A DNA stretch of 50,935 bases from Rhodospirillales bacterium (GTDB lineage Bacteria > Pseudomonadota > Alphaproteobacteria > Bin95). The notes beneath the pieces are model-generated. The model ran no database searches, was not told the origin of the DNA, and saw only the letters and a list, made by a program, of their open reading frames with translations. Location of the stretch: positions 1 to 50,935 of the forward strand of contig JAYQLI010000010.1 of the NCBI GenBank assembly GCA_038143065.1, in the 5' to 3' direction. A program made the translations under genes and the position numbers. Positions 1,285-12,768 of the stretch are shown one piece after another (the stretch's first letter is position 1; each line of letters starts with the position of its first letter).

Positions 1285-1932
1285 TTGACAAAAGTATTGA
1301 CGTTTGCAAGCAGCAAAGGCGGGACTGGTAAGTCGACTCTATGCGTTAATTTGTCCGCTTACTTTGCCAAACTAGGCAAACAAGTTATGATTTTGGATGT
1401 CGATCCACAAAGGTCATCCTACGAGTGGATAACAGAAAGCTCAGAAAGTATTTTGAGTGACGTTTCAGCTATTCATTTAACTGATGAAAGTGAGATAGAG
1501 GCTATTATAGAAGCGACCGACTGCGATTTAGTTTGTATTGATTTACAGGAGTATTGATAATTCTCCTTTGTTCGCGTTAGCTATTGCAGATTTAATATTG
1601 GTGCCATGCCGCCCTTCAAGAGATGAAGACATTGTTGGGTTAGGTTGGATAATAAAGCTGAACGAATCTTGCAAACTTCAGTCAAGTACCCAACGGCTGA
1701 AGCAGAGATAAAGGTTATTTTGAATGCAGTAAATGCGCGTTCTGTGGTCTACCAGCACATCATGCAGCAAATTAAGAATGATGATATCTTTGTTATAAGT
1801 TCTCCCATTTCTCAGACCGTGTCATTCGCCGAGGCGAACATAAACCGAGTTTCTGTTTTTGAAATGAGTGGCAAAGCCAAAAAAATGATTTCACAAGTAG
1901 GCGAAGAAATCAGCAGTTACTTATTTAAATGA
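1285..1932 (+). CDS. ParA/MinD-family ATPase (frameshifted near 1550-1640)
   Basis: Deviant Walker A KGGTGKST, ILDVDPQ and CIDL. An intervening frame gives ADLILVPCRPS. The C-terminal part is in ORF 1645..1932. Confidence 0.85.
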
Positions 1933-1989
1933 CGCGTGACATAATAGTAGAGAATAGCACATAGTAAACTTTGCAGGAAGTTCAAAACA

Positions 1990-3329
1990 ATGGGAAAAAA
2001 GTTAAAAGATATTTCTCCCAAAGACGCCGTCATTGCCCAAAGTTCTGACACTGGAAGAGAAAATACAAAAAGTGCAGATAAAAAAAAGGGTTTTGACAAT
2101 CGGTCAAAAGCTCCCCAAAATTTATCGGATATTAAAACGGAAGGATCGCAGGAAAGTGTACAACACTCATCTCAGTCTCAAGAAAACAAGATAGATTATA
2201 ATCAAAAAGAAGCGGCTCTTATAATTGATAAAAAGTCAAGCGCAATTGATGTCAGCGAAGAACTAAACGTTGAACCTCATTCAAAATCCAACAATTTTAT
2301 AGGTACAAAAACCAATGAAATTTTAAGATCGGACTCGTTTAAGAATCTTACCAAAGCTATCTCTTACGATGAACTTTTTACATTTAATCGGGGAGGATTT
2401 CAGTTTGGAATTCCAGTGCAAAACGTAAAAGAAGTTATTCGCACTAATTTGAAATTAACACTTTGCCAGTAGATATGCCTGGGTGTATCGGATCGATAAT
2501 TTACAGAGACAAATTGATTCCCGTATACGAATGCCTAAAATTTGCTCTAGAAGTAGCCACTGATCAAGAGTGTGAATTATCTAAACCTTCATCGCTAATT
2601 CTAGTTAAGATCGACGAAATTGAAGTTTGTTTTACAATTGACCGCCATATTGACGTAATATCAGTTCGAACAGGAAAACAAGAGCTCTTTACAGAGTATC
2701 ACTCTCAGAGAAAGTACGATTATATAAAGCAGACGCTTGGTTACAAGAACTCTAACCTCTTGATTTTATCATTGGAAAGGGTTTGGGCTGATGTCAAAAT
2801 TAATCGACTTAATCAAAGTATCGTGGACCTTACAAAACCGCTTAGTGACAACAAAGCGTCAAAAAGCTTTAAACTTAAAAAGAGTTCATATATGCTCCGA
2901 GTAAATGCCTTTCATTTTGTGGTTGAAATTGCAAAAGTAGTGGAGATTATCCAAGGTTTTGATGTCACGCCAGTATACGGGCAAAGTAAATTTGTGCGGG
3001 GTTTAATAAATCTACGTGGACAGGTTTTGGCGTGTATAGATATTTCAACATATCTCGGCTGCAACGGCTTAATTCTTGATGAGCGCAACAAGTATCTGGT
3101 CCTAAAGTACGAAAATCAAGAATTCGCGTTATGCATTGATGAAGTTTTTGGAATGCAAGCGCATGACCTTAACGGGTTTTCGAATTCATCACAGGTCTTA
3201 TCTGAGGAAATTGCAGAATTGTTTCCCAGTTTAAGTGAAACCAACGCTCAAACGATACTCCAGCTTTCAGTAGAGAGCATAATTCAATCTAGTTATTTAG
3301 AGCCTTTTCATAAAGACAAATTAAATTAA
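1990..3329 (+). CDS. cheW: Tandem CheW-domain protein with a hydrophilic low-complexity N-terminal extension (frameshift near 2462)
   Basis: CheW-like 1: FGIPVQNVKEVI...PGCIGSIIYRDKLIPV. CheW-like 2: IAKVVEII...FVRGLINLRGQVLACID...FALCIDEVFG. Confidence 0.8.
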
Positions 3330-3486
3330 ATTTTGGCGAGCCAACCGGGCACTTACCAATCACAAGATCTAAACAAAATGGTTAGCTCAAATTGATAGTA
3401 AGGTTTATCTAAAGATTCGAGAAATACATCCTAGTTGACAATTGATTTTAATAGTCCGCCGTATAGAAAAATGCTACACTGATCTC

Positions 3487-9374: not shown

Positions 9375-9381
9375 ATTCACT

Positions 9382-10474
9382 ATGCGGCGTCAAATCAAAC
9401 TTTTAATAATTGAGCCAAATGTATTGATTAGGAAAACTCTACACAATTTTTTTGCAGATCTAAGTGGATTTAAAGTTATTGGTCAGGTTCATGACGCTCA
9501 AATCGCGCTTTCAAAGGCATCTTTAAATTTTCCGGACATAATCATCTTTGATGTAGTAGGTAACGACGAAAATGAGATAGCCACATTGAAAAATTTGCTC
9601 GCTGACTTGAGCATACCAGTAATTTTTTTTTCAAATATGCGCGAAGAAAAGATCGCTAAAAACGCAGCTCGGTTAGGTTGCATTGATTGGTCCATAGTTA
9701 AAAAACCTACGACAAATGTTAAAAACGGAACAATTTTAGCTCTACCACAACTTAAAAAAGTGTTGAAACAGCTGCATCTGCGTTCGACCATGCGTCTCGA
9801 AAATTTCAAATCAACTTTCAATTCAACAAAAAAATGTTTGTTGACAACATCAACGGCTGGGCCTGATGCGAAAAGTCAGGGCCATAGAATGTTTAACGCT
9901 ATGTCACCTAAATTAATTGCAATTGGGGCGTCCACCGGTGGCGCGGCGGCTTTATTGAAGATCCTGTCTTCATTACCAACGCATATGCCGGGCATTGTAG
10001 TGGTGATTCATATGCCGGCTAACTTCACAAACTCTTTCGCAGCTAGGCTTAATCAACTTTGCGAGATAAAAGTTTTGGAAGCACGAGACGAGCAAGAAAT
10101 AATGGCAGGGCAAGCAATAATAGCTCCCGGAAATCGACATGTCCGAGTGAAAAAATGGTAACAAAGTGTATACTGAATTGGGAAGCTCAGATCCAGTCGG
10201 GGGATTTTGCCCATCTGTGGATGTTTTGTTTAAATCAGTCGCTATGAACGTGGGCGAAGCGTCAAGTGGAGTTATTTTGACCGGCATGGGCAAAGACGGC
10301 ACAGAAGGTATGGGGCAAATTATGCGTTATGGAGGTTTGACTATTGCCCAAGATCGTGGATCTTCGGCAGTCTATGGTATGCCAAAGTCTGCAATCGCTG
10401 CCGGGTTTGTGAAAGAAATAATTCCTTTAAATGAAATAGCAAAACGCTTGATTAAAGAATTTTCAATATCGTGA
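9382..10474 (+). CDS. cheB: Chemotaxis methylesterase CheB with N-terminal receiver (frameshift in A-run near 10155)
   Basis: Catalytic motifs IGASTGG, VIHMP, PSVDVLF, ILTGMGKDG, AQD...VYGMP. Confidence 0.92.
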
Positions 10475-10576
10475 GGCAGTTTGAACCCCTCTCTGCTCTG
10501 GCAACAAAGTTTCGACTTCAAAGAAAAAAACATTTAAACTATAGCGCTCGTTTTAATTTTTTCAGTGTTGAAGCTG

Positions 10577-12768
10577 TCAAGTTTTAAAGAATGAAACTTG
10601 GTTTTCGATCCGGCTTACGATTTCAGCTAAATCCCTAGAAGTGTGAGCTAAATTCTCAGAAACTGATTGGCTTCCATTTGCAGTAGAATCTAAGTTTTCC
10701 ATAGCATTTTTGATTTCTCTCACGGCACCAGCTTGTTCTTCAGTCGCAGCGGCAATTTCGTTTATCAAATCGGCTGTTTTTTGGATATCGGGGGACACTG
10801 TTTCCACTAAATTACCTGCGTCTTCTGCAATCTTAACTCTATTCGCTGCTAGTTCACCAATTTCTTGAGCGGATTTTTGACTTTGCTCTGCAAGGCTTCG
10901 TACAGCTTCCGCGACCACAGCAAACCCAGCCCCAGCCTCGCCTACACGGGCTGCTTCAATCATAGCATTTAGCGCAAGTAAATCAGTTTGGTTGGCAAAG
11001 TCTTCAATTAAATTTACTCGGCTAGCAATTTCTTTCATAGCCAAAACTGTTTCCTTGACTGCATCACTTCCTTGCGTGGTGATAACCGCAGCATTAGAAG
11101 CAAGCTCATTTGTAGAATTTGCATTTTCCGAGTTTTGAGTAATAGAAACGCTTATTTGGGTAAGAGCAGAGCTAGTTTCTTCAATAGATTGGGCTTGAGA
11201 ATTCGAACTATCATGTACTTTTTCAGCATCAGTGCTCACTTTATTCGACGCTGTTGATAAGTTTTCCACTGCACCTTTAATATCTGACATTATATCTTGA
11301 ATACGTTCGATAAAACCGTTCAAAGCTGCCGCGGTTTTTCCTATTTCGCTTTCTCCAAAATCCGGCAGCCTTATTGTTAAATCACCATCTCCGTCACGCA
11401 GGTTATCCACCGCGGTTAGCATCTGATTAATAGGTTTTGAAATAGCTATCCTGGTAAATATTACTATGATTGATGCTACTGATATCAATGCAACAACGGC
11501 GAGAATAGCAATTGTATTCCTTAGCGAAACAACTGAAGCAAACGCTTCACCTTGGCTGATTTCAGTGATTATCGCCCAGTCCACATCCTGAATTTCTAGA
11601 GGTTTAAATGCAGAAAGGACCGGTGACCCAACATAATCTAATGCCGCTCTGGCATCAGTTATTCCCGAAATAGCATTCTGGACCGAATTAGTAGTAATTT
11701 TTTGTCTGCCTATTGCACTCCCTGTTTTTTCAATTTCTGCTATGATATCTTCGTCCATAGCTGTACTTTTCAATAAATCTAAGTAGGCTGTAGAATTTTC
11801 AATGAATGCTCGCAACTCGTTTTTGATTGTGTAATCGGCGCCAACCATGAAAGACTGTCCAGTTTTTCCTAAGCCAGATCCCTCCCAATTATTTCCGCTT
11901 GTCATAACCAAGTTGATTGCATCAATTGGCATTTGAAATATGACTACGCCAATTAAAGTCTGTTCATCAAATATTGGAGAAGATATGAAAGAGGCAGGGG
12001 CATTGTAAGATGGATGATACGGCGCGAAGTCTGTCAACTTAACGAATTGCTTTTCTTGAGCTTTTCTTGCGGCATCAAACACTGCGGCAAAATTTGTTTT
12101 TGAATATGCGCCTGAGGTTAAGGATGTTCCATAGTCTGCTTCTTTGAAAACTGAATAAACAATATTGCCATTATAAGGCTCGACGAGAAATATATCGTAA
12201 AGCCAAATTGTTCTAAATAGTTTTTGATAATTGGATGATACTCGGCGTGAAATTTAGTATAGGTACTAACATCGTCGGCCGCATTAAGTTCATGCTTTGA
12301 ACCTAATGAGTTTTCGTTTGAAGAAATATACAAGTCCTGCAATAATTGCACTTTGGGATCTTTGGGAAAATAATCTTTGAAATTTGCGGTATAACCCAAA
12401 TTTTCGGATAATTTTGGCAAATACTGCTCTTTGTAGTAACTTTCCAGGCGACTTTTGTATCCCCGGCTTTGAGCAGAAGTTAGCCCAATTTCAATCTCGA
12501 CTGTTTCGAATGCATCGGCAAAATCCTTCATGGCATTTACTACCATTTTATTTTCAGAAAAAGTCTCTATCTGAGCTCTAATTTGTTTAAAATAATTTTC
12601 AATTTGTTTAGCTTGCATTTCCCTTACTGCAGTTAACTTAGAAAAAGATTCTTTTTCGAGAGCAATTTGAGATGATCTGATGCTCAAGACAGAAATAATG
12701 GCGATTGCGGCTAGTAAGATGGGAGTGTAATTACCGATACTTTTACGCCAACGTTCAGGTTCTTCCAT
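10577..12768 (-). CDS. Methyl-accepting chemotaxis protein (TM, large periplasmic Cache-like domain, TM, HAMP, signalling domain); frameshift near 12200
   Basis: [44 protein letters not shown]...GDLTIRL...EIG; two hydrophobic helices; periplasmic [20 protein letters not shown]. Confidence 0.92.

Follow-up and report, generated by a model that had tools for sequence, protein, structure and literature searches.

A putatively acquired Wsp-like chemosensory pathway with a predicted cAMP output in a Rhodospirillales bacterium

The window analysed here is a 50,935-nucleotide stretch of DNA from a marine Rhodospirillales bacterium (GenBank assembly GCA_038143065.1, contig JAYQLI010000010.1, positions 1 to 50,935). 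Seven genes spanning 1285-12782, delimited by open reading frames (ORFs), Pfam matches and comparison with intact relatives, form a chemosensory block, hereafter also the island, which encodes a ParA-type ATPase, a coupling protein with two CheW domains, a hybrid CheA, a receiver-bearing cyclase, CheR, CheB and a transmembrane chemoreceptor (methyl-accepting chemotaxis protein, MCP). We consider it likely, with a probability of roughly 0.7, that this block is a complete non-motility chemosensory pathway of a Wsp-like kind that puts out cyclic AMP (cAMP) and was acquired horizontally. An earlier reading of the same DNA, made from the letters alone (the sequence-only reading), had named this gene set, and all of its members were found in place by ORF and Pfam analysis. 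Because the named genes fill the block, no free CheY, CheZ, CheD or motility gene is found among the ORFs and Pfam matches at 1285-12782, as that reading had stated. The core components MCP, CheW and CheA lie together in one cluster according to Pfam, with intact versions at two other loci (L012 and L001), and the sole regulator in the block besides CheB is the multidomain receiver-cyclase.

The host genome (4.63 Mb, estimated to be 97.6% complete) has three CheW matches and a single MCPsignal match, all of them inside the island; the island is the host's only chemoreceptor machinery. Flagellin-like matches occur on two other small contigs. Guanylate_cyc matches number six genome-wide, five of them outside the block. 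There are also seven cNMP_binding matches elsewhere in the genome, three of which fall within one frame of 552 amino acids, so readers of cAMP would be available in the host.

In the proposed pathway, the transmembrane chemoreceptor, with its large periplasmic sensor, would control the hybrid CheA via the double-CheW coupler. Phosphate would then pass from the Hpt histidine of CheA to Asp185 of the middle receiver of the cyclase, the only canonical one in that protein, and phosphorylation would align or dimerise the cyclase domains, as in PleD and WspR, to yield cAMP. Adaptation of the receptor would proceed through methylation by CheR and CheB, and the C-terminal receiver of CheA is probably a phosphate sink or a second branch. 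By analogy with ParC and ParP in Vibrio, ParA and the basic tail of the double-CheW protein would probably position or partition the array, and cNMP-binding proteins with genes at other chromosomal sites would serve as readers of the cAMP. Within this scheme, we infer the direct phosphotransfer from CheA to the cyclase, and likewise the activation by phosphorylation, the role of ParA and the downstream readers.

The receiver-cyclase and its linkage to CheA

Separate receiver and cyclase genes had been named in the sequence-only reading as a point on which the circuit could fail. An intact public protein of 681 amino acids (P0001) shares 99.7% identity with each piece of the window cyclase and spans the frame break near 7363; judged by this comparison, the receiver and cyclase ORFs are one gene. 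We aligned 18 full-length relatives (660-708 amino acids, 44-69% identical to P0001) and found the protein conserved over its entire length. An AlphaFold2 model (mean predicted local distance difference test score, pLDDT, of 80.8) places three (beta-alpha)5 domains ahead of the cyclase domain, in agreement with the order of three receivers and a cyclase proposed before. The three domains are not equivalent. In the middle one, D141, D142, D185, S215/T216 and K237 are invariant or nearly so in the 18 sequences, and the domain matches Response_reg with an E value of 4.3e-24. The first carries Glu-Asn at the positions of the acidic pair and Gln at the position of the Lys, and the third has a variable acceptor position (E, K, N, T or D). 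By these residues, the first and third domains are pseudo-receivers, and only the middle one has the receiver feature set. As the full receiver signature is confined to this domain, Asp185 of the ICDIEMP motif is the right candidate for the phospho-acceptor, which is the residue that the sequence-only reading had picked out.

The output domain matches PF00211 (Guanylate_cyc) at 73.6 bits, against a cut-off of 21.9 (E 2e-20), and Pfam returned no GGDEF match in this regulator. Its closest solved chains are Pseudomonas aeruginosa CyaB (3r5g, E 1.4e-24) and photoactivated adenylyl cyclases, and its catalytic residues align with FFSDI, KFVGD and DYTIIG..N..A.R of CyaB. The metal-binding Asp pair and the N-x3-R motif noted earlier correspond to D427, D471, N548 and R552, which are invariant among the 18 sequences, as are K467 and K591; T541 is conserved in at least 90% of them. 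The Lys of the ATP-selecting pair suggested earlier stands, but its partner is not the Asp of RVDLT: in the alignment with the solved CyaB and OaPAC, the DLTIIG Thr occupies the position of their DYTIIG Thr, the partner of the substrate Lys. The metal-binding Asp, substrate Lys/Thr and transition-state Asn/Arg positions have established roles in class III cyclases, among which a Lys-Thr pair marks the ATP-specific class IIIb. Since this pair is present, cAMP is the predicted product. In a Foldseek search, the best whole-chain match was PleD (E 4e-20), with low TM-scores of 0.2-0.3 because the predicted domain arrangement differs; the fold match therefore suggests, by analogy, that the cyclase is activated through phosphorylation-driven dimerisation. 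NCBIfam holds no dedicated receiver-cyclase model, and a search of the ESM Atlas returned generic receiver-cyclase clusters only.

We next consider the gene order. A scan of one genome per species gave 79 loci, and each of these was searched with the window's protein pieces; the 44 whose cyclase part shares 42-72% identity with that of the window form the orthologous family. Of the family's loci, 36 extend 2.2 kb or more upstream of the cyclase, and all 36 have a CheA ATPase region there; 37 extend 0.7 kb or more, and in all 37 the CheW/receiver end of CheA is directly upstream. In the window itself, the cheA stop codon (TGA) and the cyclase start codon (ATG) share bases in an ATGA. Going by the label on each record, the linked loci come from Alphaproteobacteria (marine Rhodobacteraceae/Paracoccaceae, SAR116, Rhodospirillaceae, Thalassospiraceae and Methylocystaceae), from Isosphaeraceae and other Planctomycetota, Acidobacteria, Desulfobacterales and SAR324, and from many Spirochaetota including Leptospiraceae. 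A search for the same gene order had been recommended in the sequence-only reading, and the cheA-cyclase order does recur in several phyla. The chemoreceptor-to-cAMP circuit sketched there is upheld in its gene content, its one-gene cyclase, its catalytic residues and its foreign block, but not as a layout unique to the window. In a tree of the 44 proteins, which largely tracks the phylum labels, the window cyclase falls nearest to that of a Paracoccaceae single-cell genome (69% identity, support 98), followed by SAR116 and Rhodospirillaceae (support 99). More distant receiver-cyclases (~30% identity), mostly from Myxococcota, have cheA upstream in nine of the 20 loci with enough flank, and the other distant matches among the 79 loci are unrelated cyclases.

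This adjacency bears on an alternative in which the cyclase is a conserved neighbour and not the phospho-acceptor output: CheA would signal via its own receiver, CheB or an unlinked single-domain regulator, while the cyclase would be controlled otherwise, for instance by its pseudo-receivers or its C-terminal helical domain, or would serve as a phosphate sink. The hybrid CheA does bear a canonical receiver, and two of the three receiver-like domains of the cyclase cannot be ordinary acceptors. However, cheA and the cyclase are neighbours across phyla with no exception among those 36 loci, and their stop and start codons overlap; the DD-D-T-K set of the middle receiver is conserved in 18/18 sequences; searches for CheW and MCPsignal found no other chemosensory component in the genome; and Wsp provides a precedent with the same parts list, in which a hybrid CheA is combined with a receiver-fused cyclase. 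We regard this alternative as unlikely.

Several points weigh against the proposed pathway, some of them here and others in the frame breaks described below. Phosphate may flow mainly elsewhere, as CheA and CheB have receivers of their own. No cAMP receptor or phosphodiesterase is encoded in the island. Nor was a cNMP-binding protein or phosphodiesterase found in 20 ORFs chosen from the 44 that lie within 4.5 kb downstream of the cyclase at eleven loci, namely ten spirochaete or other loci without downstream cheR/cheB matches and L004. The adaptation enzymes are also unevenly distributed: downstream of the cyclase, cheR is present in just 17 of 36 loci and cheB in just 15 of 31, so that spirochaete versions may work without adaptation enzymes encoded nearby. 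The loci that do have downstream cheR or cheB are those of Alphaproteobacteria together with L004 (Acidobacteria, both genes) and L002 (Isosphaeraceae, cheR only). Downstream ORFs that could be matched encode a histidine kinase, a BLUF protein, an aminopeptidase and a SpoIIE phosphatase; the BLUF blue-light sensor gene directly follows the receiver-cyclase, on the opposite strand, in a Leptospiraceae locus (L020:12424-12840).

A broader proposal, to which we give slightly less than even odds, is that three-receiver cyclases define a distinct and old chemosensory class whose sole output is cAMP, found in Alphaproteobacteria, Spirochaetota, Planctomycetota, Acidobacteria, Desulfobacterales and SAR324, with a distant version in Myxococcota. 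The alphaproteobacterial form would carry a ParA positioning module that docks on the basic tail of the coupler, and the unit would be mobile as a cassette for sensing a chemical and making cAMP, here supplying the only array of a bacterium without chemotaxis genes.

Frame breaks in the island

Aligning intact relatives to the island with tblastn revealed about 12 frame breaks in its 11.5 kb. There are two in parA (near 1555 and at 1625-1675), one in the CheW gene (near 2445-2472), four in cheA (near 4500, 5140, 5590 and 5700), two in the cyclase gene (at a run of seven A at 6498-6504, where P0001 needs eight, and near 7363), one in cheB (near 10153, beside an A run) and two in the MCP gene (near 12199 and 12720-12744). 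Across cheA, the intact CheA of L012 (993 amino acids) switches frame four times. Several of the breaks adjoin A or G runs. The same assembly splits rpoB into two frames (G000:C35:2660058-2664196, loci L080 and L081) that meet near 2662007-2662016. This split sits on a contig of 2.86 Mb, pointing to assembly frameshift errors even there.

Nearly identical copies of the island are also present in 20 public runs, drawn from 13 metagenome studies of estuaries, salt marshes and seawater. We aligned contigs of four runs, each from a different study, to the window. At 11 of the 12 indel sites listed (of 23 in all), namely 1168, 1625, 1670, 1672, 2861, 2877, 2897, 4493, 5141, 12198 and 12720, all four runs share an indel relative to the window, those at 12198 and 12720 being insertions in all four; the twelfth, at 6012, is an indel in two of the four. 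Read depth in run X10 is 86.9 at 1168 and 9.4 for the island's own contig, and one contig joins different DNA just before 1153. The short stretch by the left insertion sequence (IS) end (1125-1170) may belong to a more abundant element in that sample.

These data speak to the possibility that the island is a decaying pseudogene cluster, in which the breaks are real and the pathway is dead here while intact in relatives. The breaks are dense, about one per kb against one in 4 kb in rpoB, and denser than in the remaining window, where five split genes occur in ~37 kb; the transposase frames of the flanking IS6 elements are likewise broken, and a foreign island might escape selection. Furthermore, only four of the roughly 12 breaks (4493, 5141, 12198 and 12720) are among the listed indel sites, and P0001 covers the one near 7363; the breaks outside these are presumed to be errors, and a few of them may be real decay. 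Against decay, the essential rpoB is split as well, the breaks adjoin A or G runs, and more homopolymer errors are expected in the island because AT-rich DNA has more homopolymer runs. In addition, the contigs of four independent studies agree with one another against the window at the same places, and the sequence is 99% identical to the intact P0001 apart from indels. We therefore consider decay very unlikely, and the island frame breaks are, on these comparisons, most likely assembly errors. If so, the genes are probably intact in the cell, and the window copy is a poor experimental template until the assembly is corrected. The five split genes outside the island, which probably reflect the same type of assembly error, encode an aldehyde dehydrogenase (14642-16083), a 2-oxoacid dehydrogenase E1 beta subunit (17651-18459), an ABC ATPase (24776-26297), a LysR regulator (35871-37135) and an AMP-binding ligase (42181-43795).

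Origin, flanks and other genes of the island

The island stands out by composition. In 1-kb bins, its GC content is 0.34-0.43 (1001-13000), compared with 0.46-0.61 in the remaining window, which bears out the AT-richer block seen before. The cyclase was found in none of 36 other genomes of the host's family, nine of them from the same genus, and in none of 400 sampled genomes of its class with two candidates scored per genome, a figure that describes rarity among the genomes searched. Low GC together with this absence supports horizontal acquisition of the block, putatively from low-GC marine Alphaproteobacteria. Elsewhere in the window, 31001-42000 has a GC content of 0.55-0.61, against 0.46-0.50 on both sides, and contig C10 combines segments of at least three different compositions. 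Neither promoter-like sites (38, versus 30.5 +/- 5.4 in shuffled sequence) nor terminator-like sites (10, versus 9.7 +/- 4.0) were in excess.

The island is bracketed by direct repeats (1-1011 versus 12943-14096, piecewise 87-99% identical), each of which contains an IS6-family (DDE_Tnp_IS240) transposase, so the IS6-flanked arrangement of the sequence-only reading is borne out by the repeat alignment. Aligning seven genomic copies defined the left element, which has the transposase, the terminal inverted repeats and, within 2 bp, the length (~820 bp) typical of the family; its 13-bp ends follow the pattern GG(T/C)(G/A)CTGTCAGA(C/T). The right copy is incomplete: at 14096 it ceases to resemble any of the other copies, ~85 bases before the outer inverted repeat that five of them possess would be reached, and the pair thus falls short of the two complete copies of an IS6 pseudo-compound transposon. 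The other copies are 80-92% identical and occur only on small contigs (C10, C11, C32, C38 and C48), whereas the island is single-copy in the genome. To the right of the island lies a DUF2924-like fragment of ~420 bases, part of which is repeated at 1-274. A third unit of DUF2924 fragment and IS6 was noted at 46248-47276 (83% identical to 23-1087), in which the fragment joins the IS about ten bases from the 274/275 junction. A fragment of a 2-oxoacid dehydrogenase acyltransferase gene at 14075-14632 (positions 6-102 of the 232 in the profile) terminates at the same place as the truncated right IS, which probably cut the gene.

Instead of having moved as an IS6-bounded unit, the island could have come to lie between incidental IS6 copies through later insertions and recombination in an IS-rich replicon. 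Consistent with this, the right IS is truncated, the left copy lacks an 8-bp target-site duplication, the junction between the DUF2924 fragment and the IS shifts slightly among the window's three copies, and the IS copies in the genome diverge from each other by 8-20%. On the other hand, two direct copies bracket exactly the low-GC segment, and the island contigs of the metagenomes end 55-64 bases past 1100 and 12900, that is, at the repeat borders, which fits the presence of repeats at the same places in wild populations. IS26-type elements are also known to move neighbouring DNA without leaving target duplications. We lean somewhat against the incidental explanation, and mobility of the island by IS6 is plausible.

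Among the other products of the block, CheA consists of a leader of ~210 amino acids without a recognised family, followed by Hpt, dimerisation, HATPase and CheW (P5) domains and a C-terminal receiver that is canonical by Pfam; no P2 domain was found in Pfam searches. The leader (3487-4140) is conserved among orthologues (L001:7355-7999, L012:4223-4852). When five orthologues were compared with Pfam, this N-terminal region matched no family, the sole hint being a faint Hpt match (E 0.21) in a spirochaete; the leader may be a degenerate second Hpt domain. CheR has no TPR domain. The MCP gene, convergent with the operon, encodes two membrane helices (identified by eye), a large periplasmic region, a HAMP domain and a signalling domain; from the end of HAMP to the C terminus there are ~238 residues by Pfam coordinates, which would equal 34 heptads. 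The window MCP is 51-59% identical to the MCP of L001 (740 amino acids), whose match to dCache_1 is weak and under the Pfam cut-off. In the closest intact clusters, a second MCP of 612-638 amino acids lies between the CheW gene and cheA (L012:2265-4181, L001:5479-7317); the window, with a gap of only ~150 bases there, lacks it.

The coupling protein begins with a basic MGKKLKDISPK, which is followed by a low-complexity linker and two CheW domains. Coupling proteins were examined at 22 loci, nine of which have parA, all nine alphaproteobacterial. In these nine, the double-CheW protein (413-459 amino acids) starts with MGKKLKxxSP or MAKKFDKISPK and has a low-complexity linker of 100-150 residues. 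The MxKK(L/F) tail is present in 9/9 loci with parA and in 0/13 without: 12 of the latter have coupling proteins (304-407 amino acids) that start at the first CheW domain, and that of L041 (443 amino acids) has a long N-terminal region unlike the tail. The window ParA scores 120 bits against NCBIfam ParA_partition, under the cut-off of 180 bits. This correlation between ParA and the CheW tail provides a separate lead on the cellular placement of non-motility arrays. Coordinates of the island, its flanks and the modelled cyclase domains are collected in Table 1.

Table 1. Features of the island and its flanks (window positions) and domains of the cyclase (residue numbers)
Feature	Position	Strand	Evidence and remarks
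Repeat A, fragment related to a DUF2924 gene	1..274		Left part of the 1.1-kb direct repeat; the contig begins here; repeat families D3 and D5 versus 12943-13214, 87-92% identical
IS6-family element, left copy, 818 bp	275..1092	-	Terminal inverted repeats GGTGCTGTCAGAC and GGCACTGTCAGAT; transposase frame broken (327-650, 566-1069); DDE_Tnp_IS240 E 5.6e-15 and 5.7e-21
parA-type ATPase, ~215 amino acids	1285..1932	+	AAA_31, CbiA and ParA Pfam matches; 54% identical to the intact 213-amino-acid ParA of L012
Double-CheW coupling protein	1990..3329	+	CheW E 2.2e-26 in two stretches; genome search places CheW at 2460-2786 and 2892-3290
Hybrid CheA	3487..6495	+	Pfam Hpt, H-kinase_dim, HATPase_c, CheW (P5) and Response_reg
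Predicted three-receiver adenylate cyclase, 681 amino acids when intact	6492..8535	+	Response_reg and Guanylate_cyc matches; comparison with P0001
 First (beta-alpha)5 domain	residues 19-131		AlphaFold2 model
 Second (beta-alpha)5 domain	residues 136-252		AlphaFold2 model
 Third (beta-alpha)5 domain	residues 261-375		AlphaFold2 model
 Long helix	residues 366-407		AlphaFold2 model
 Class III cyclase domain	residues 416-603		AlphaFold2 model
 C-terminal helical domain	residues 609-666		AlphaFold2 model
cheR methyltransferase, frame intact	8538..9374	+	CheR E 5.8e-44; single-frame alignment with CheR of L012
cheB methylesterase, divergent receiver	9382..10474	+	CheB_methylest on both pieces; Response_reg E 6.6e-8
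Transmembrane chemoreceptor (MCP), ~735 amino acids when intact	10577..12782	-	MCPsignal E 4.4e-28, HAMP E 1.3e-9
Repeat A' (12943-13214) and ~150 more bases of the same DUF2924-like gene	12943..13364		Right island border; DUF2924 on ORF 13033-13422, E 8.6e-13
IS6-family element, right copy, truncated	13365..14096	-	Same orientation as the left copy; repeat families D1, D2, D4 and D6

Comparison with known systems

Chemoreceptor arrays are best known for steering motors, and to our knowledge the one well-studied array that drives a second messenger directly is Wsp, which makes cyclic di-GMP (c-di-GMP). The layout described here appears to be a variant of the Wsp-like pathway with a predicted cAMP output, rare among sequenced species yet present in several phyla. 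If this is true, an array wired to cAMP would be a second direct route to a second messenger besides Wsp, and cAMP signalling would acquire methylation-based adaptation, array positioning and high gain. The family offers a clean test system because kinase and cyclase are always neighbours, and nothing else in the host genome can cross-talk at the level of receptor or kinase. The window copy is notable as the host's only chemosensory system, one that arrived on an apparently foreign island.

A full-text literature search, which did not cover Wuichet and Zhulin 2010, found no characterised chemosensory pathway with an adenylate or mononucleotidyl cyclase output, in line with the sequence-only reading, which knew of none. 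The layout itself is nevertheless already on record: in the accessible part of a census of cheR-TPR clusters (Munoz-Martinez et al. 2012, PMC3447774), one supplementary row, D8FCI6, reads 'REC - CHD Mononucleotidyl cyclase'. As far as that part goes, D8FCI6 is a single table entry without analysis or experiment, and its CheR is a TPR fusion, unlike the one described here. The passages seen of its main text count mononucleotidyl cyclase among the output domains of pathways serving alternative cellular functions (ACF) and give multidomain response regulators as a mark of such pathways (PMC3447774). Two further papers were considered as precedents and rejected: in the portions available, the cyclase text of PMC9239204 concerns CHASE2 cyclases and is irrelevant, and PMC10782961 makes no mention of a cyclase. 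Interest is tempered by the fact that the pathway is a natural extension of Wsp and that its layout occurs once in the accessible part of the 2012 census table.

At its borders, the island resembles the pseudo-compound transposons of IS26-type (IS6-family) elements in having two direct IS6-family copies around a foreign segment, and differs from them in that the right copy has lost its outer end, no target duplication is seen and both transposase frames are broken in the assembly. The coupler recalls Vibrio ParP, which, according to the part of the study available (eLife 2017, PMC5706961), binds ParC through its N-terminal part and carries, beyond a long linker, a CheW-like domain at its C terminus, coupling array formation to position. 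As in this pair, so far as that part describes it, a che cluster encodes a ParA-type ATPase together with a partner in which a linker follows an N-terminal tail and leads to a CheW-like domain. Two CheW domains are present in the island's partner protein, however, which is apparently the pathway's only coupler; the likeness is one of architecture, and the interaction is suggested by co-occurrence only.

For the activation of the cyclase, Caulobacter PleD (REC, pseudo-REC, GGDEF) is a plausible model by analogy: it likewise has a receiver that can be phosphorylated, a pseudo-receiver acting as adaptor and a cyclase-fold domain that needs to dimerise. It belongs to another catalytic family with another product, and lies outside any Che cluster. 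Pil-Chp of Pseudomonas aeruginosa is also a chemosensory system that raises cAMP, and its CyaB has the closest solved catalytic domain. Yet that cyclase is encoded elsewhere, is not known to carry a receiver and is controlled indirectly, whereas the one described here is receiver-bearing and encoded right after cheA.

The closest parallel is the Wsp system of Pseudomonas (WspA-F and WspR), the model ACF pathway, which makes c-di-GMP. Both have a membrane MCP, CheW couplers, a hybrid CheA with a receiver, CheR, CheB and a receiver-cyclase as regulator, and neither has motor genes. Judged by this parts list and by the multidomain regulator, the pathway appears to be of the non-motility (ACF, Wsp-like) kind; the C-terminal receiver of CheA and its lack of a P2 domain are indirect pointers to its class. 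The differences lie in several parts. The two CheW domains are joined in one protein here and correspond to two CheW-like proteins in Wsp; CheR is without the TPR domain of WspC; a ParA gene is part of the cluster; and the regulator contains three domains of the receiver fold and ends in a helical domain. Above all, WspR is a REC-GGDEF protein, while a class III adenylate cyclase (Guanylate_cyc) forms the output domain of the island's regulator, so that the predicted messenger is cAMP and not c-di-GMP.

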